Origin: Kofleriaceae bacterium
GTDB taxonomy: Bacteria > Myxococcota_A > Polyangia > Haliangiales > Haliangiaceae
Length of the DNA: 11,820 bases
Direction of reading: 5' to 3'
Assembly (NCBI GenBank): GCA_965215005.1
Contig: CBDCCZ010000008.1
Span: forward strand, 1-11,820
In this document: positions 1,594 through 11,683 of the stretch, piece by piece
Layout: every line of letters begins with the position of its first letter
Numbering within the stretch: the stretch's first letter is position 1
Position numbers and translations under genes: made by a program
The notes under the pieces: generated by a model
Told to the model about the DNA's origin: nothing
The model's database searches: none
Seen by the model: the letters and a program-made list of their open reading frames with translations, nothing else

Positions 1594-3144
1594 GTGGCTG
1601 GTGTGGTCTATCTCGTCGGCGCTGGACCTGGCGACCCGGCGCTCTTGACGCGGCGCGGTGCGGATCTTTTGCGACGCGCGCAGGCGGTGGTCTACGACGG
1701 CCTTGTAAACGCGGTGCTTCTCGACTTGGCGCCGCCCGATTGTGAGCGCATTTACGCCGGTAAGAAACACGCCGCGGAAGGCACGCCGCCGCTCAGCCAA
1801 GAGGCCATCAATCAAACCCTGGTGCGGCTCGGCTGCGAGGGCAAACGGGTGGTGCGTCTCAAAGGCGGCGACCCCTTCGTATTCGGGCGCGGCGCCGAAG
1901 AATGTCATGCGCTGCTTGCGGCCGGCGTTCGCTTCGAGGTCGTTCCCGGAGTCACCTCGGCGACGGCGGTGGCGGCCTATGCGGGCATTCCGCTCACCGC
2001 CCGGAGCACGGCTTCGACGGTGGTGTTTGCCACCGGCCACGAAGCAGCGGGTAAGCCGAGCTCGCATGTTGACTGGCAGGCACTCGCGCACGCCGGGACC
2101 GTGGTGTTGTTCATGGCGCTCAAGACGATCCGCGAATGCGCCGCGTCGCTGATCGCCGCGGGCAAGCCGGCGGCGACGCCAGCGGCGGCGGTGTACTGGG
2201 GCACCACGGCGTCGCAGCGGACCATCGCGACGCGGCTCGATGCGTTGGCCGATGCGGTTGCCGGTGCAGGGCTGCGACCGCCAGTGCTGATTGTGGTGGG
2301 GGAGGTCGTCGAGCTGCGCGCCGAGCTGGCCTGGTACGAGCGCCGGCCGCTATTTGGTACCCGTGTGCTCATCACCCGCGGCCTCGAGCAGGCGCGCGAA
2401 TTCGCCGGCGCCATGGCTGAGCTCGGTGCTGAGCCGGTGATCGCCCCGGTGACGCGGCTGCAGGGGCCAGATGCCGCCCAAGCTGCGGCGCTCGCTGCCG
2501 CGCTCGATCGGCTCGGGGAGTACCGCTGGGTGCTATTTACCAGCGCCAATGGCGTCGCCCAATTCTTCGATGCGCTGGCAGCGCGAGAGCGCGACGCGCG
2601 TGCGTTGGCGGCGCTGCGTATCGCGTGCGTGGGCGCTGCGACCGCGGCGGCGGCGGCACAACGCGGCGTGCGCGCCGATTTGGTTCCAGCGCGCGGCGAC
2701 GGCGCGGGCGTCGGTGCGGCGATGATTACCGCTGATTCAAATATGCGTGGTGCGCGGGTGTTGTTTCCCCGCGCTGCCGATGGCCGCGATGATGCGGTGG
2801 AGGCGTTGACCGCTGCAGGTGCCGCGGTCGACGTCGTGCCGGTGTATCGCACCGCAGCGACCGAGCGAGACGATCCCCGCATGGGTCATCCGCTGGAGCT
2901 TCTGCACCAGGACGCCATCGATGTCGTCGCGTTCTTCGCACCCTCGCAGGTCGAGGCGCTGTATGTGCTCCTCGGTGAGCGAGCCGCGGCGATTCTCGGC
3001 GGTTGTCGCGTCATCGCCGCCATCGGTCGCAGCACCGCCGCTGCTTGTGAGGCCCGCGGGCTTGCGGTTCATGTCGTGGCCAGCGCACCAAACACGGCCT
3101 CCATGGCGAGCGCTATCGCCGCCTATTTCCAGCGAGATTCCTGA
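1594..3144 (+). CDS. cobA: Fused uroporphyrinogen-III C-methyltransferase / uroporphyrinogen-III synthase (CobA-HemD)
   Basis: SUMT motifs: VYLVGAGPGDPALLT, VYDGLV, RLKGGDPFVFGRGAEE, VVPGVTSA, YAGIPLT. Linker WYERRPLFG. HemD motifs: VLITR, LFTSANGV, CVGAAT, VPVYRT, AAIGRST. Homology begins at GTG 1594. Confidence 0.95.
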   Translation: MAGVVYLVGAGPGDPALLTRRGADLLRRAQAVVYDGLVNAVLLDLAPPDCERIYAGKKHAAEGTPPLSQEAINQTLVRLGCEGKRVVRLKGGDPFVFGRGAEECHALLAAGVRFEVVPGVTSATAVAAYAGIPLTARSTASTVVFATGHEAAGKPSSHVDWQALAHAGTVVLFMALKTIRECAASLIAAGKPAATPAAAVYWGTTASQRTIATRLDALADAVAGAGLRPPVLIVVGEVVELRAELAWYERRPLFGTRVLITRGLEQAREFAGAMAELGAEPVIAPVTRLQGPDAAQAAALAAALDRLGEYRWVLFTSANGVAQFFDALAARERDARALAALRIACVGAATAAAAAQRGVRADLVPARGDGAGVGAAMITADSNMRGARVLFPRAADGRDDAVEALTAAGAAVDVVPVYRTAATERDDPRMGHPLELLHQDAIDVVAFFAPSQVEALYVLLGERAAAILGGCRVIAAIGRSTAAACEARGLAVHVVASAPNTASMASAIAAYFQRDS

Positions 3145-4085
3145 TGCAATACCCCGATTATCGTACCCGCCGTCTGCGTCGCACTTCGGCGCTTCGCCGT
3201 CTCATTCGCGAGACTCGCCCGAGCCGCGAGCAGCTCATTGCGCCGCTGCATATCGTCGCTGAATCGGGTGGCCAGAAAGCTGGCCTCGAGCTCGTCTCTC
3301 CCGAGCATGCAGGAGAGCGAGCGCGTGGGCTCATGGAAGCCGGGGTCGGCACCGTCTATCTCACGAGCGAGGCCAGCCGCAAGGATGCCGTGGGCTCGGA
3401 AGCATGGAGTAAGAAGGCCGCGCTGCATCGCGCGGTGCAGGCCATCAAAGCCGCGTGTCCCCAGCTGGTGGTCATCGCAGAGGTCGCCTTCAGCGGTTAC
3501 ACGACCGCTCGCGTGAGCGGTGTGATGGTCGAGGACCGTCTCGATAACGACGCCACGCTCGAAAACTTGGCGCGTGCGGCAGTGTCTCTCGCTGCCGTCG
3601 GTGTCGACGTGGTCGCCACCTCCAGCACGCTCGATGGCGCTGTCGCGGCGTGTCGCGAGTCGCTCGATGCCGATGACTTCGAAGACGTGGCGCTGCTCGC
3701 CGTGTCTGCGGCCTATGAGTCGGTATTTGCGGGTGCGTCTCGCGAAGCCGATGCGAGCCGCGCCGACCTCGATCCTGCCAACGTTGCCGAGGCAATTCGC
3801 GAAGTCACGTTGGACGTCGCGGAAGGCGCGGACCTGGTTGCCGTCGAGCCTGCGCTAACGTCGCTCGATGTCGTACGGGCGCTGGCCGACGAGGTTGACG
3901 TGCCGGTGGTGGCGATCGTCGGTGCGGGTATGTGGTCGCTGTTCGAGGCGGCTATCGACCGCGATGGCCTCGATCGAGAACGGCTCCTGCTCGAGACCCT
4001 CTCGTGCATGGTCCGAGCCGGTGCGAGCGCGATGGTCACGCCGCATTCCGAGCTTGCTGCACGCGCGTTGAGCATCCGTGAATGA
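3144..4085 (+). CDS. hemB: Porphobilinogen synthase (HemB/ALAD) homologue, predicted catalytically inactive
   Basis: Colinear with PBGS: RRLRR...RETR N-terminal arm, KDAVGSEA, DNDATLENLA, LDGAV, LDPANVAEAIREVTLDVAEGAD, LETLSCMVRAGA. Catalytic motifs are replaced: YSAKY to VSAAY, MVKP to AVEP, metal loop to EVAFSGYTTARVSG. Overlaps the cobA stop (TGATG, 3142-3146). Confidence 0.9.
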   Translation: MQYPDYRTRRLRRTSALRRLIRETRPSREQLIAPLHIVAESGGQKAGLELVSPEHAGERARGLMEAGVGTVYLTSEASRKDAVGSEAWSKKAALHRAVQAIKAACPQLVVIAEVAFSGYTTARVSGVMVEDRLDNDATLENLARAAVSLAAVGVDVVATSSTLDGAVAACRESLDADDFEDVALLAVSAAYESVFAGASREADASRADLDPANVAEAIREVTLDVAEGADLVAVEPALTSLDVVRALADEVDVPVVAIVGAGMWSLFEAAIDRDGLDRERLLLETLSCMVRAGASAMVTPHSELAARALSIRE

Positions 4086-4285
4086 CGCGCGAGCTCGAAT
4101 ACAAGTTCGTCGAGCTATCGATTGTCACCGATGAGACTCTCGAGCGCGCCGCCAACGAATGGGTCGCCGAAGGCTGGCAGCTCGATGGGATTCACTTCGT
4201 CGTCGGGCCGGGCTCACGGCGACCGACGATGGCGTTCATGGCGTTCGTTCGCGAGGCTGCGGCCAATCCCGACGACGCGCACTAG
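4082..4285 (+). CDS. Small DUF4177-like protein, 67 aa
   Basis: The pattern EYKFVEL...LERAANEWVAEGWQL resembles DUF4177 (EYKxV...LNxxGxEGWEL). ATGA overlap with the hemB-like stop at 4082-4085. Confidence 0.75.
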   Translation: MTRELEYKFVELSIVTDETLERAANEWVAEGWQLDGIHFVVGPGSRRPTMAFMAFVREAAANPDDAH

Positions 4286-4317
4286 GGTCCAAGCCGCGCT
4301 TGATGGGTAGACGACTG

Positions 4318-6342
4318 TTATGGGTCCGGGAACGGCGTTAGCTGAAGGGCGTAAGGCACGTCGAGGCCGGGCAGGGCTTGAGTGATAGGCAGATCGTCAT
4401 CGCGACGACGCAGCTCGATGGCAGCGCCGGTTCGCAACGCGATCGGCCGAACGCGATCGCGGCGGCGCTCGCCATCGTCGACGCGCCACTCGATAGGAAC
4501 CACATCGGCACCATCGAGGCGCAGCTGATAGCGGCCAGCGGCGCCGGTGAAGCGAAAGGTATCGATATCCTGGCGGGCATCGAGATAGCCGGTGACCACG
4601 GTGTTGGCGGCGATGGGCGTCGCGTCGGCGCGGCTGGCGTTGGGCTCGGCTTCGAGTCCGGCTGCCGGCTCTGCCAGCTGCACCGTGAGCTGGTAGGCAT
4701 CGCTTACGTTCTCGGTGGGCAACTTGGACCGGCCGCGCGGCGACTCCGTAACCAACACGTAAAGGCGACCTCGTGTCCGCACGTTATGCAGCCACTCGTC
4801 CTGGCCGATGCCGCCTTCGTTGGCGCTGGCCAGCTGCCGACCTAGCGCGTTGAACAACGTGAGCTCGAGGTCGGCGTTGGGCAGAGCCGTGAGATGGACG
4901 CTGGCGAGCTGCATGCCCGCAGCGTCGGGGAGTCGGAGCTCATAGTAGTCGCGGTCGGGTTCGCGTACCGAGATGCGGCGACCGAGGAAGCCGCTCACTG
5001 GAGTAGCAGCGCCAATCAGCGTTGCAGCCGCTGGCTCGTCGTTCGGCTCGACCTCGCGGCTGTGCACGCTGCGCGGTCGCAGCACCAACTGGTAGATGAC
5101 GCTGGCGGCGGCAAGACCGACGACGAGCGGCACGATCGCCATGCGCAGCGTTTGCCGGCGCCGCAGCGACCGTTCATAGGCGTCTAAGTCGCGGCGCTGA
5201 AGCCGAACGCTGGAGTCGATGCCGTAGTCGACCACGTCGCTCGGCAGTCCCCCGTTTGACGTGCGGCGGCGCCCCGCGGCCGACAGACCATGGAGAGTGA
5301 GCGAGGCATCGGAGCCGGCGTGATCCTCCCACAGCCCCTCCAGCGCATCGATGAGCTCGAGTGCGCGCGAGTAGCGCTTGCTGCGGTCTTTGGCCATGGC
5401 TTTGGCGACGATGGCGTCGACGGCAGGAGCGATCCCGAGGTCGGGACGCCGCTGCGAAGGCGGCACCAGCTCCGCGGTCAGGTGCTTGGTGAGCACCCCC
5501 ACCGGGGTCTTGGCGGTGAAGGGATGGTGGCCGGTGAGCAGCCGATACATCACCGCGCCGAGTGAGTATATATCGGTTCGGCGGTCGACGTCCTCGCCGC
5601 GAATCTGCTCGGGCGACATGAAGTACGGGGTGCCGACAATCGAGCCGCGATCGGTAACCTCGGCGGCCTCCTCGCGCTCCGACAGCTTCGCGAGGCCGTA
5701 GTCGAGCACCTTGACGAAATCGCGGCCGCGGTGGGTGCGGGTGACGATGATGTTTTCGGGCTTGAGATCGCGATGGATGACGCCGAGCTCGTGCGCTTCG
5801 GCGAGCGCGGTGCAGATCTGCGCGACGATCGGCGCGGCGCGAGCAAACTTCATCGGGCCGTCGCGCTTGATGAGTGAGCCGAGGTCGGCCCCGCGGACAT
5901 ACTCCATCACCAAATACATCGCGTCGTCGGCAGTGCCAAAGTCGAAGACCTGGACGCTGTTGGGATGGGTGAGACGAGAGATCGCCTCGGCTTCGCGCCG
6001 GAACCGATGAATGACCTCGGGATCGGCGGCGAGCTCGCGGTGGAGGACCTTCATCGCCGCGACCTTGCCCATGCGCTGATGGGTGACTTTGTAGACCACG
6101 CCCATGCCGCCGCGTCCAAGGACCTCGGTGACGCGGTAGCGCTGATCGACGATGCGGCCGAGCCAGGGATCGGGCCCGCTCGTTCGGCGCTCGCGCCCAG
6201 CGTTCCATTCTCCCGTTGCGCCAGAGGTCGAGGCCGCCCGCGTCGTGGCCATGCCCGCGCCACACACGCCGCAAAAATTCGATGCTTGCTCGAACGCGGC
6301 GCTACAGGCGGGGCAGCGATATGTCGGCAGCGGCGTATTCAT
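4318..6342 (-). CDS. Membrane Ser/Thr protein kinase with N-terminal zinc ribbon and C-terminal PPC-like ExEPN[D/A] repeats
   Basis: CPAC-x10-CGVC; LGRGGMGVVY, AAMKVL, HRDLKPEN, DYG, GTPYFMSPE, DIYSLG; TM helix MAIVPLVVGLAAASVIYQLVL; EVEPND...DRDYY and EAEPNA...DIDTF repeats. Start taken as ATG 6342; TTG 6363 is possible. Confidence 0.92.
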   Translation of the reverse strand: MNTPLPTYRCPACSAAFEQASNFCGVCGAGMATTRAASTSGATGEWNAGRERRTSGPDPWLGRIVDQRYRVTEVLGRGGMGVVYKVTHQRMGKVAAMKVLHRELAADPEVIHRFRREAEAISRLTHPNSVQVFDFGTADDAMYLVMEYVRGADLGSLIKRDGPMKFARAAPIVAQICTALAEAHELGVIHRDLKPENIIVTRTHRGRDFVKVLDYGLAKLSEREEAAEVTDRGSIVGTPYFMSPEQIRGEDVDRRTDIYSLGAVMYRLLTGHHPFTAKTPVGVLTKHLTAELVPPSQRRPDLGIAPAVDAIVAKAMAKDRSKRYSRALELIDALEGLWEDHAGSDASLTLHGLSAAGRRRTSNGGLPSDVVDYGIDSSVRLQRRDLDAYERSLRRRQTLRMAIVPLVVGLAAASVIYQLVLRPRSVHSREVEPNDEPAAATLIGAATPVSGFLGRRISVREPDRDYYELRLPDAAGMQLASVHLTALPNADLELTLFNALGRQLASANEGGIGQDEWLHNVRTRGRLYVLVTESPRGRSKLPTENVSDAYQLTVQLAEPAAGLEAEPNASRADATPIAANTVVTGYLDARQDIDTFRFTGAAGRYQLRLDGADVVPIEWRVDDGERRRDRVRPIALRTGAAIELRRRDDDLPITQALPGLDVPYALQLTPFPDP

Positions 6343-6393
6343 CGGCAAGAGCCGGGCGGGCAAGAGTAGCGCGCTCGCGCAAGTTCGGATTCG

Positions 6394-7422: not shown

Positions 7423-8323
7423 TTAGGGCGTGGCGCGGTCCCATACGCCGCGGATCTTTGGTGAGTACGCATAGGCCGCCAGCGTGTGGCTCGGCTTGCG
7501 CTCGCGCACCTTCTTGAAGATTGCGAGGGCGGAGTCGTCATCGCCATAGGCGACATAGGTGGCGCCTAGCAGCACGCCGACCCGAACCGCCAGCGCGGTT
7601 ATCCAGATAATCAGGATCTATCGTGGTGAGAGCGCGTTTGACCGCAGCGAAGTCGCCGTCGCGCCAGGCCCGGCGCGCATCGGGAAGAACGCTTTCAGCG
7701 CGATCTTGCATCTCCAGGCGCTTCTGCACGCGGGCGCGGGATTCCGCATCGGGCGGCGGTAGGCGCGAGGCGCGGACGCTCACGTGGTGAATCGGAACGA
7801 CGATGCTCTCGCTCTTTTCGAGAACGTTCGAGTCGCGAAAATTATACTGTTGCAACAGCTCTGCTTGTCGCTTATCGGCGAAGTAGGCCGCAGCGATTTC
7901 CGCCAGTGTCTCGCGCCCCGCCGCGGTGTGCGTCACGTGAAACGGAATCCGCAACGTCTGCCCCGCCGCCAACGTTTCATCCGCCGGCACGTTGTTGAAC
8001 CGAGCCAGAAATTCAGCTCGTCGCTCGTCGCCGAGGTGCGTCTTTGCAAGCCCTTCGAAGGTGTCACCCACCGCCGTGGTGAGATCGGTCGACACCGGGA
8101 TGTTGAGGCGCTCCCCGCGCTTGAGCTTGCGCGGGTGGGTCATATCGTTAGCCACCATGATGAAGATGGCGTGACGTCGGTCGCCGTAATACTCGGCGGC
8201 AATGAGCTCGAGCGTGTCGTTGTCTTTGACCTTGTAGCGAACCGTTTGGTCGATCTCGGCGCGTGCAGGAGCGGCGATTGCCAACATCACGGCTAGCAGT
8301 TGCCAACTGAGAAAGCTCCTCAT
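7423..8323 (-). CDS. Secreted triple-LysM protein with C-terminal TPR-like helices; apparent +1 frameshift at about 7599-7600
   Basis: Signal peptide ending in A-R-A; three LysM-like units (YKVKDNDTLELIAAEYYG, TTAVGDTFEGLAKTHLG, HTAAGRETLAEIAAAYFA). Removing one base at 7599-7600 extends it as DTALAVRVGVLLGATYVAYGDDDSALAIFKKVRERKPSHTLAAYAYSPKIRGVWDRATP to TAA at 7425-7423 (299 aa). ATGA overlap with the upstream kinase and an AGGAG SD. Confidence 0.85.
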
Positions 8324-9696
8324 GGGGACTCCTGAGCAATGCCGGCGTCTTTCGCTCGCGGCTGTGCGTCGGCTCTCTTGGTGGCTTCTCGCTCGAGGTC
8401 GATGCGCAGCTCGAGTGGGGTTTCTGTAGTGCTCCCTGGCGGAACGTCGATAGACCGCGACACCGGTGAAAAGAAGTCATTCTCGATGGTCACGACGTGC
8501 GTGCCTTCGTTGGCTTCAAAGGGCGTAGCCATGGGAGTGTAGCCAACCTCGTCCCCATCGAGGAAAATCCGCCCCCACGGATGAACGATCACGCGCACAA
8601 AGCCCCGCTCTGGCTGCGCGAGCATCGCTGGCTGCACTGGACGGGCGGCGCCCAGCGGCGCCAAGTGAAAGATTCCCACCATCAGTGCCACCACCGCAAA
8701 GATCGCGGTTTGCACCGTGAAGCTTCGCCGCACTAGCTGTCGCGCGGCGGGGTTGGGTTGGGCCAGCGCTCCGGCACCAGGACCGCCGAGCGCCGGGTTG
8801 AGATATTCGTCAGCTTCGAACTGGGTGATGATGTCCTGGTTCTTGATGAACAGCACCAAGCGAGCGTGGTAGTTCATCTCCACGTGCTTGGCGAGGAAGC
8901 GCTCGAGCGCCATGACCAGGTTTTGCGCCGAGCGCCAGCGATCCCGCGGCTGCTTGTTGAGGCACTTGTCGATGATGCGCTCGAGCTCGCGCGGGATTTC
9001 TGGATTGAGCTTGCGCGCCCGCACGTGCTTCTCTAGGCGAATCTTGTGCATCACCGACTTCTGCTCGTCCTCGACGAAAGGCTTGCCGCCGGTGACCATC
9101 TGATAGAGCACGATGCCGAGCGAGAAGATGTCTGAGCGGGCGTCGAGCTTCTCGCCGAGAATCTGCTCCGGCGACATATAGGCCGGGGTTCCGATACCCG
9201 TGCCTGCTTCGGTGAGATCGTCGAAGCTCTTATCGCGAGCAATCCCGAAATCCATGACCTTCACGCCGCCCTGGCGGGAGATCATGATGTTGGCGGGCTT
9301 GATGTCGCGGTGGAGGATGCCGCGGTAGTGGATGTAATCGAGCGCGCGCGCGACTTGCATCGCAACGATCGCGGCGACGTCGTAAGGCAGCCGGCCACAT
9401 CGATCCAGCAGATCGTAGAGGTCGATGCCCGAGACGTATTCCATCACGATGAAGAACGCGCCGCGTTCGTGATGGAAGTTGTAGATGTGGATGATGTTCT
9501 CGTGCTGTAGGTTCGCCAGCGACTGCGCTTCGCGCTCGAACCGGGTAATGAGCTGCGGCTCGGCGGTGGCCGAGGTCTTGAGCGCTTTGATCGCGACGGT
9601 GCGGTTCAGCGAGTCCTGGATCGCGCGGTAGACCACTGCCATCCCACCGGAGGCAACCTCCTCCACGATCCTACAGTCCCCGATGCGTTCGAGCAT
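8320..9696 (-). CDS. Membrane Ser/Thr protein kinase with C-terminal PEGA-like domain
   Basis: VASGGMAVVY, VAIKAL, HRDIKPAN, KVMDFGIA, GTPAYMSPE, DIFSLG; TM helix TAIFAVVALMVGIFHLA; PEGA-like GFVRVIVHPWGRIFLDGDEVGYTP...GTHVVTIEN. GGAAGG precedes the ATG. Confidence 0.95.
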   Translation of the reverse strand: MLERIGDCRIVEEVASGGMAVVYRAIQDSLNRTVAIKALKTSATAEPQLITRFEREAQSLANLQHENIIHIYNFHHERGAFFIVMEYVSGIDLYDLLDRCGRLPYDVAAIVAMQVARALDYIHYRGILHRDIKPANIMISRQGGVKVMDFGIARDKSFDDLTEAGTGIGTPAYMSPEQILGEKLDARSDIFSLGIVLYQMVTGGKPFVEDEQKSVMHKIRLEKHVRARKLNPEIPRELERIIDKCLNKQPRDRWRSAQNLVMALERFLAKHVEMNYHARLVLFIKNQDIITQFEADEYLNPALGGPGAGALAQPNPAARQLVRRSFTVQTAIFAVVALMVGIFHLAPLGAARPVQPAMLAQPERGFVRVIVHPWGRIFLDGDEVGYTPMATPFEANEGTHVVTIENDFFSPVSRSIDVPPGSTTETPLELRIDLEREATKRADAQPRAKDAGIAQESP

Positions 9697-9805
9697 TGGC
9701 CTTCCAAGCTATCGCAGATCCGTCACTCGAGCGAGCACGCCCTGGTGCCTCATCTCGCAGCAAATTGTCACCTCCCGCCGTTGCCGAACCGGTATCATCA
9801 ACGCA
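9697..9805. promoter_or_regulatory. Divergent promoter region between two kinase genes
   Basis: Minus strand: TAGCTT (9711-9706) 9 nt before ATG 9696. Plus strand: TATCAT (9793-9798) 7 nt before the in-frame GTG 9806. No well-spaced -35 element was seen. Confidence 0.5.
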
Positions 9806-11683
9806 GTGCAGCGCCCGCAGTCTGGACGCCGTCGAGCAGGCATTGAGGAGGGCGCGGCATTGGGCCGCGACGTCGAGCCGCTCGACGACAGCATTTTAGC
9901 ACCGCCGGAGCATCAGGCAGAGGCGCGTTACGAGCTCGGCGAGCTCATCGGTCGGGGCGGGATGGGCGAGGTCAGGGCCGCGTTCGATCGCAGAATCGGC
10001 CGCGAGGTCGCGATCAAGACGCTATTTGCGGGCGAGGTCACTCGTGGCGACGCTCAGGTGCGTTTCGTTCGCGAGGCCCGGGTGCAAGGGTTGCTCGAGC
10101 ATCCGGCAATCGTTCCCGTGCACGACCTCGGGTTCGATGCTCAAGAACGGCCGTTCTTCGTAATGAAACTCATCAGCGGAGTAACGCTCGCCGAGGTGCT
10201 GCGCGACCGGACGGCGGACGAGCCCCTACGAGCGCGCTTCGGACTGCGAACGCTACTGGCTCGATTCGCCGATGTTTGCCTCGCCGTCGATTTCGCGCAC
10301 TCCCGAGGAGTGGTGCACCGCGACCTCAAGCCCACCAACATCATGCTCGGAGCGTTCGGGGAGGTGTGGGTGCTCGACTGGGGCGTGGCCAAGCTCGCGA
10401 CCGACGGCAATGATGTCGAGGCTACGCGCGCCGGCGCGGCGACTCTGAGCGCGGCGGCCAAGGGGCTGCTCGCGACGAGCGATACGGTGGCGAGCACGGT
10501 CCTCGGCACGCCTGGCTACGTTGCGCCCGAACAGCTCATCGAGGGAGCCTCCGCGGATCATCGCGTCGATGTCTACGCGCTCGGGTGTGTGCTGTTTGAG
10601 ATCCTCGCCGGACGACCCGCTCATCCGCGCGGAGAGGCGGCAATTTCGTCCACGTTGCGCGGCGCGCCGCGAGCACCGTCGGCGCATGGTGACGGCGGCG
10701 TTCCTCCGGAGCTCGACGCGGTGTGCCTGCGAGCGATGGCGACGGCACCGGGTGACCGCTTCTCCTCGGTGCGCGAGTTGCATGATGCGGTGCAGGCGTT
10801 TCTCGATGGCGATCGTGACCTGGCGCAACGCCGCCGCCTGGCCCGCAGGCATGTGCGGGGCGCCAAGCGAGCGCTGGAACGGGGCGATCGTCCAACCGCG
10901 ATGCGCGAAGCAGGCGCGGCAATGGCGCTCGATCCCGTCAACGACGCGGCTCCCGCCATCGTCACGAGGGTAATGCTCGAGCCGCCCGAGGGCGACATGC
11001 CAGATGAGGCGCAGTCAGAGCTGGGGCGCAGCTTGAGTCGCGCCGGGCTTCTCCAGGCCAGGGCCCTCGTCATCATTTGCGCCATATATGGCCTGCTTGG
11101 GCCGGCTCTACTGTGGTTAGGGCGAGCCGGTTTGAAGTGGGCACTCGCGATGCTCGCTGGCTCGGTGATGCTGGCGATGCTGGGGTGGATCGGCCAGCGC
11201 CAGCGGGTCCCCGCGGGCAAGCTGATGTGGGTAACCATCGTGGGCAACGCACTGCTTGCAGCGGTGGTCTCTCGTGTCCTCAGCCCCCTCACGATTCCCG
11301 CCGCGCTCGCCACCGCTTCGGTAATGGCGTTCATCGTTCATCCCGTGGTCCGACGGCCTGCCATGGTCATCGGGCTCTACATATTGGTGGTGGTTGGACC
11401 CGCGGCACTCGAGGCTATAGGGGTCCTCCCTCGCACCTTCGAGCTCCGCGACGGCGGGATCTTCCTGCATTCTGACGTCGTCGATGCGGGGCATCCCGCC
11501 ACGATTGTCGCGCTGTTCCTATTTCTGAGCTTTCATCTGATTTCGTCGGGGATTTTCGCGCTCACGTTGCACGGCGAGCGGCTGGAAGCGCAGCGCCAGC
11601 TGCACCGCCAAGCCTGGTACCTGCGCAGTTTGGTACGGCGGCTGCCCGACGATCGAGACCTCGACTCCTCGAGCGACGGGTAA
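9806..11683 (+). CDS. Ser/Thr protein kinase with C-terminal polytopic membrane domain (about 6 TM helices)
   Basis: [46 protein letters not shown]; a helical linker and then about six hydrophobic segments. Start is GTG 9806 or TTG 9860 (GAGGAG at 9845-9850). Confidence 0.92.

Follow-up and report, generated by a model that had tools for sequence, protein, structure and literature searches.

The gene at positions 3144-4085 (+ strand) of the window, the whole 11,820-nucleotide stretch of DNA analysed here from a Kofleriaceae bacterium, occupies the native hemB position and encodes a full-length homologue of HemB, the porphobilinogen synthase (PBGS). Judged by its residues, the product is catalytically dead and almost certainly not a PBGS. 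It combines an intact reading frame and a predicted intact fold with targeted catalytic loss, as in a pseudoenzyme. PBGS is a textbook shape-shifting oligomer, and the bacterial form is regarded as a housekeeping enzyme that is always active and has a single function. The window gene is a real pseudoenzyme variant of this enzyme and apparently an undescribed one: no report of a HemB pseudoenzyme was found in a literature search outside which most subscription journals and supplements fell.

The open reading frame encodes 313 amino acids with no internal stop and matches the Pfam ALAD family (PF00490; 235 bits, residues 7-306), in agreement with a first-pass annotation made from the letters alone, which had read it as a full-length HemB in an open frame. 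Against the NCBIfam PBGS equivalog PRK09283 it scores 246.3 bits, below the cut-off of 297; the live copy on contig C14 of the same genome scores 499.3 bits. When the protein is aligned to the E. coli and Chlorobium PBGS structures, Ala190 (GCC, 3711-3713) and Glu235 (GAG, 3846-3848) fall on the first and second Schiff-base lysines, so the loss of both lysines proposed in that annotation is borne out. These lysines we take to be K195 and K247 in E. coli numbering. The Ala190 codon is three changes away from either lysine codon and the Glu235 codon a single change from AAG. There is no lysine beyond residue 102. Both Schiff-base lysines are present in all 119 other proteins among the homologue-search matches listed, and where those 119 homologues are at least 97% conserved (180 columns), the window protein departs from them in 67.

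The former Zn loop (DACFCEYTDHGHCG in relatives) now reads EVAFSGYTTARVSG (3480-3521, + strand), and a catalytic metal loop of either the three-Cys or the Asp-rich type is absent. The lid region (3729-3779, + strand) is remodelled and shortened. At lid and substrate positions the replacements are R204A, Q208D, S261A and Y300P, in addition to the lid deletion; the roles that we assign to these positions are presumably those of the lid basic residues and of the Ser and Tyr that hold the substrate carboxylates. The sequence AIVGAGMW is found at 3912-3935 and MVTPH at 4032-4046, and the substrate-contact tyrosines are missing. The metal-loop, lid, AIVGAGMW and MVTPH changes had all been listed from the letters alone, and each sits where it was placed. 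A second deletion, of 5 residues after residue 45, was absent from that list; both deletions are in frame.

Other elements are retained, again as first annotated. The N-terminal arm motif RTRRLR (3162-3179, + strand) is kept with P8T as the only change, REVTLDVAEGAD (3798-3833, + strand) in the allosteric-Mg and octamer-interface region is kept with E220 and D224, and RAGA is kept at 4014-4025. The arm arginine (R12 here) and the allosteric-Mg Glu and Asp are, we assume, octamer-interface residues. Since what has been retained belongs to the arm and to the octamer-specific allosteric-Mg interface, the protein probably still oligomerises.

Sequencing or assembly error was considered as a source of these changes and rejected: the changes are scattered and number in the dozens, there are no frameshifts, and Logan contigs of run X1 spanning 2765-4400 agree with the window at every position (0 differences, depth 2.6), although this agreement is not independent because X1 is probably the source sample itself. 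Contamination was rejected as well, as the GC content of the contig (0.661) fits the genome and the neighbouring HemD clusters with those of the family.

The gene sits at the native hemB locus of the family, a cobA-hemD-hemB-sglS-like operon. Upstream lies a cobA-hemD fusion encoding uroporphyrinogen-III methyltransferase and synthase (1594-3144, + strand, 1594 being the chosen start codon), with Pfam TP_methylase and HEM4 matches and a TIGR01469 score over the cut-off. Its TGA overlaps the ATG of the window hemB, and its branch length is ordinary (0.54 vs. a median of 0.53). The hemB stop codon in turn overlaps the ATG of a 67-amino-acid SglS/DUF4177-like ORF (4082-4285, + strand; NF058545, 63.5 bits against a cut-off of 170; atlas DUF4177-like, 0.92), a type of ORF that comes after native hemB in many relatives. 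A convergent Ser/Thr kinase gene (4318-6363, - strand), assigned by profile match and synteny, closes the conserved locus. A promoter scan found none. The 67-amino-acid protein resembles the N-terminal half of SglS, a motility protein of Myxococcus, and its gene occurs once in the source genome; in Myxococcus xanthus, according to PMC9108774, sglS adjoins hemB. Beyond the locus, the window holds a two-LysM protein gene (7538-8323), the final stretch of which looks like a different reading frame, suggesting a possible frameshift close to the 3' end. Three Ser/Thr kinases lie within 7.4 kb (4318-6363, 8320-9696 and 9683-11683), two of them convergent with overlapping ends.

The TIM barrel and N-terminal arm of the ALAD family can be recognized in the window protein both from its sequence and from an AlphaFold2 model. 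The alignment behind the model has 86 rows, most of them canonical HemBs; the barrel is predicted in full and the arm with it, at a pLDDT of 92.4, and the model matches E. coli PBGS with a TM of 0.85. Fold and atlas searches returned ALAD alone. With the catalytic face defined by the strands of this model, 39 of 86 invariant positions are kept on the face vs. 74 of 94 elsewhere (p=6e-6). Neutral decay was simulated from three canonical genes at three GC settings each, using substitutions without indels, and a contrast of this size was reached in none of 9000 runs (0/1000 in each of the 9 settings). The concentration of losses at the active site that had been read from the letters is therefore upheld. 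Absence of stop codons was rejected as a test of selection: since 8-127 of every 1000 neutral runs remained stop-free, an open frame is weak evidence by itself, and it is the placing of the losses that carries the argument. Codon use is gene-like (CAI percentile 0.32); GC3 is low (11.5th percentile), which speaks against full constraint.

Selection on the window gene itself is harder to gauge. No relative above 52% identity was found among 8000 scored candidates, 50% representatives and 138 family genomes (133 of these genomes with a match); the nearest named homologues, canonical HemBs of Kofleriaceae-labelled proteins, are about 50% identical. Because close relatives are absent, dN/dS of the window gene is not measurable, and pairwise dN/dS was rejected as a test because every comparison involving it is saturated. 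Purifying selection after the loss of catalysis is suggested only indirectly, by analogy with the parallel copies described below.

A second canonical hemB, for which the first-pass annotation had suggested a search, is present in the source genome (G000:C14:198862-199845). It is intact: the two lysines are in place and the metal loop is Asp-rich, of the Mg type. Its product is 37% identical to the window protein and 78% identical to the Mg-type copies of genus g12, in which the Mg-type copy is the only hemB and lies in a different gene context. Single copies of hemA and hemC are found in the genome, both on contig C59. From these sequences we infer that porphobilinogen synthesis passed to a foreign Mg-type hemB and that the native Zn-type copy was thereby released. 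Three further genomes (G063, G281 and G285) carry two intact hemB genes each, possibly a stage preceding displacement.

A parallel case is found in family f7. ALAD matches occur in 357 of the 401 genomes of the class, and 24 genomes, including the source genome, have two or more. Of the other 23, 14 were examined and the remaining 9, which have weak best scores, were counted as split genes (the unpublished genomes G342 and G373 enter the tallies only). The 14 comprise four dead-plus-live pairs, all in f7, three genomes with two intact copies, and otherwise fragments or frameshifts. In the same survey, family f16 has an ALAD match in 0 of 14 genomes, several of them more than 90% complete. An altered hemB lies at the native locus in five of the six f7 genomes, and four of these five also have a live Mg-type copy. 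The lysine positions hold Thr and Cys in G036 and G092, and Arg and Glu in G048; G075 and G108 (the latter genome 67% complete) have Arg at the first position and keep the second lysine. The Cys loop is gone from all five copies.

The f7 dead copies are under purifying selection. The G036/G092 pair, which has lost both lysines, gives a dN/dS of 0.13 at dS 0.50; the live pair from the same two genomes gives 0.09 at dS 0.51, and the f7 dead copies compared with a metagenome copy give 0.13 and 0.06. Constraint extends equally to what was the catalytic face of the G036/G092 protein, where 11 of 139 positions have changed vs. 21 of 186 elsewhere. No SglS-like gene was found after the G036 or G092 dead hemB, so operon coupling does not explain this constraint. 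The suggestion in the earlier annotation that the scaffold is kept by selection therefore gains support from the f7 copies; for the window gene the absence of a close relative and the fast evolution of its non-catalytic columns count against it.

The window and f7 dead copies likely arose independently, as far as trees and alignment columns indicate. The window protein (P0001) nests among canonical HemBs of its own order (SH-aLRT 95-98), maximum-likelihood trees part it from the f7 dead copies, and among 18 diagnostic columns 9 side with its own order vs. 2 with f7. AU tests did not reject a single clade of the window and f7 dead copies (p=0.33 and p=0.086).

Displacement has also ended in loss of the native gene. 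In G007 and G083 the native hemB is cleanly deleted and hemD is joined directly to the small ORF, whose linkage to the hem operon outlasts the deletion in both genomes; in G011, G021 and G228 the Mg-type copy is alone. In the cases examined, these five genomes make deletion about as frequent as retention after displacement, and since the native gene is deleted in some displaced lineages, any retained job must be dispensable. Neither the displacement by a foreign Mg-type hemB nor the outright deletions formed part of the account given in the first-pass annotation.

The explanation that we favour, and hold to be somewhat more probable than all others together, is that selection maintains the window protein as a HemB oligomer without catalysis, in a binding or scaffold role in which the live enzyme has no part. 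The events would be as follows. A foreign Mg-type hemB takes over porphobilinogen synthesis, and the native copy is freed. The native Zn-type gene, still in its operon, has lost every catalytic element, while its product would still fold as a PBGS barrel and assemble through the arm and the allosteric-Mg interface. Selection would retain it for a protein-binding job that native HemB either already had or gained. In its simplest form, the product would be a homo-oligomeric scaffold for a host partner that the borrowed enzyme cannot serve; candidate partners are the co-translated CobA-HemD, the SglS-like protein and live HemB. A job independent of the live enzyme is favoured because the live copies of f7 come from different clades. 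The ligand-sensor role proposed at first reading is unlikely for ALA or porphobilinogen, as the substrate-contact positions have been lost.

The main competitor, which we consider unlikely but well ahead of the remaining ones, is that the protein is a folded relic with no job of its own. Flanked in the operon by genes whose stop and start codons overlap its own, such a relic would still be translated; selection would remove only stops, frameshifts and misfolding variants, the active site would drift, and deletion would eventually follow. The stop/start overlaps at both ends fit this account, as do the clean deletions in G007 and G083 and the small size of the dead groups, most dead representatives being singletons or clusters of up to 5. 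The branch of the window protein is long even on non-catalytic columns (0.87 vs. a median of 0.23), where 20 of 94 invariants have changed, and selection against misfolding would also spare the core and the helices. However, the relic account leaves unexplained the dN/dS of 0.13 and the constrained barrel mouth of the G036/G092 copies, which no coupled gene follows, as well as retention across four f7 genera. Furthermore, the surface arm arginines and Mg-site acids would not be required for folding of a monomer.

A regulatory subunit, which would join the live Mg-type HemB in hetero-oligomers (dimers or octamers) and tune its activity through a shift between octamer and hexamer or through dilution of active sites, is improbable. 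The kept motifs do belong to the octamer-specific interface of arm and allosteric-Mg site, which controls lid closure according to PMC7729013, and a live copy is present in five of the six genomes with an altered copy, the sixth being 67% complete. On the other hand, the two proteins of the source genome are only 37% identical and differ in ancestry, and their genes are not linked. The origin of the live partner also varies between genomes, with the f7 live copies split between two separate Mg-type clades, which makes a co-evolved interface with live HemB doubtful. That the remodelled barrel mouth has come to bind a new ligand or to carry out new chemistry is very improbable for the window protein, in which most of the new residues are small or apolar (Ala, Ser, Val, Gly, Thr), the barrel has no lysine and the fold and atlas searches pointed to ALAD only, although the residues of one subclade, which has the second lysine and 16 fixed novel positions (P0121-P0126), would fit a single bound ALA or a novel reaction.

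That subclade (L049:1489-2457, L048:1480-2490 and P0121-P0126) keeps the second lysine only. P0121-P0126 are six clusters of f7 type with 66-100% identity to L049. Many of the 16 fixed residues that differ from canonical HemB are at the barrel mouth, and the new fixed motifs are DVGVxAYTxHGHxG, CSxRYxS and FSGSGEY. Judging by these residues, the subclade is a candidate single-ALA binder or new enzyme, and it is arguably a better bench target than the window protein.

Dead HemBs were also sought more widely. No additional dead-plus-live pair was seen in 251 genomes sampled from the phylum (G861 was left out of close examination); the five two-match genomes examined have split genes, and five low scorers keep both lysines. 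A structure scan of named genomes covered 80 loci, none of which lacks a lysine. A profile of six dead copies retrieved, among the matches listed, 149 other representatives, of which 123 have retained both lysines; in 14 both are missing, in 5 the second and in 2 the first, and 5 are gapped there. Two of the 14 are f7 copies and one looks frameshifted. The dead representatives are 27-53% identical to one another, and two carry Bacteroidota names. A second lineage shows stepwise lysine loss (P0406, P0412, P0416, P0421, P0293 and P0280; P0416 and P0421 represent 19 and 11 member sequences, respectively); near one dead representative, 4 of 119 homologues form a graded series of this kind. P0382, named from Saccharicrinis aurantiacus, has Thr at the second lysine and has lost the Cys loop. 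A dead clade in the Bacteroidales was looked for and not found: 201 genomes gave 41 matches, and the six closest to P0382, which were examined, all keep both lysines.

Across 24 dead or altered homologues, found with the dead-copy profile and picked for lysine loss so that the conservation pattern is biased, the arm arginines, E220, D224, EGAD and RAGA are retained in 19-24 sequences (R12 in 23, E220 in 21, D224 in 22, and E227, D230, R291 and G293 in all 24). Y187, Y196 and Y258 are kept in 3, 2 and 1 of the 24, respectively, the range with V260 included being 0-3. Three frameshift-like rows, gapped rows and near-duplicates were left out of this set.

A broader idea can be put forward tentatively, and we think it rather less likely to be right than wrong: bacterial HemB may have a hidden second job as a structural hub, such that each takeover by a foreign Mg-type hemB leads either to deletion of the native gene or to a pseudoenzyme that keeps only that job. 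At least two such events would have taken place in the myxobacteria, and repeated ones outside them, leaving graded series with both lysines, one or none. If so, natural dead copies isolate a moonlighting function, for example a link between tetrapyrrole synthesis and an SglS-like motility protein, or the organisation of CobA-HemD. If selected dead copies do recur, they would constitute a new pseudoenzyme family and would provide a clean handle on a non-catalytic role of bacterial HemB, one that could be tested in Myxococcus, which has hemB beside the motility gene sglS. There is also an annotation trap, as several altered or dead HemBs are named porphobilinogen synthase by their sources, and the altered copy P0121 passes the NCBIfam PBGS cut-off (385.6 bits).

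Among known systems, canonical PBGS/HemB (PF00490; PDB 1b4e, 1i8j, 1w1z) shares with the window protein the fold with its arm, the native operon position and the arm and allosteric-Mg motifs; unlike it, the window protein lacks the Schiff-base lysines, metal ligands, lid basic residues and substrate-contact aromatics, and it scores below the equivalog cut-off. Pseudomonas putida likewise has two hemB genes, one of Zn-type ancestry (HemB1) and one Zn-independent, Mg-type (HemB2); according to PMC2770081, HemB1 still has its Zn cysteines and activity is expected of HemB2, whereas here the Zn-type copy is dead. The same paper describes PyrC', an inactive dihydroorotase needed for assembly of aspartate transcarbamoylase in Pseudomonas. 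PyrC' is a functional analogy to the window protein, being a dead metabolic enzyme beside a live paralogue with its metal ligands lost, but it belongs to another family and has a known partner, as against the candidate partners proposed here. Mammalian PBGS, which according to PMC7435893 moonlights as a proteasome inhibitor, differs in being an active eukaryotic enzyme with a eukaryotic target, yet it provides a precedent for a non-catalytic job of a PBGS oligomer such as that proposed here.
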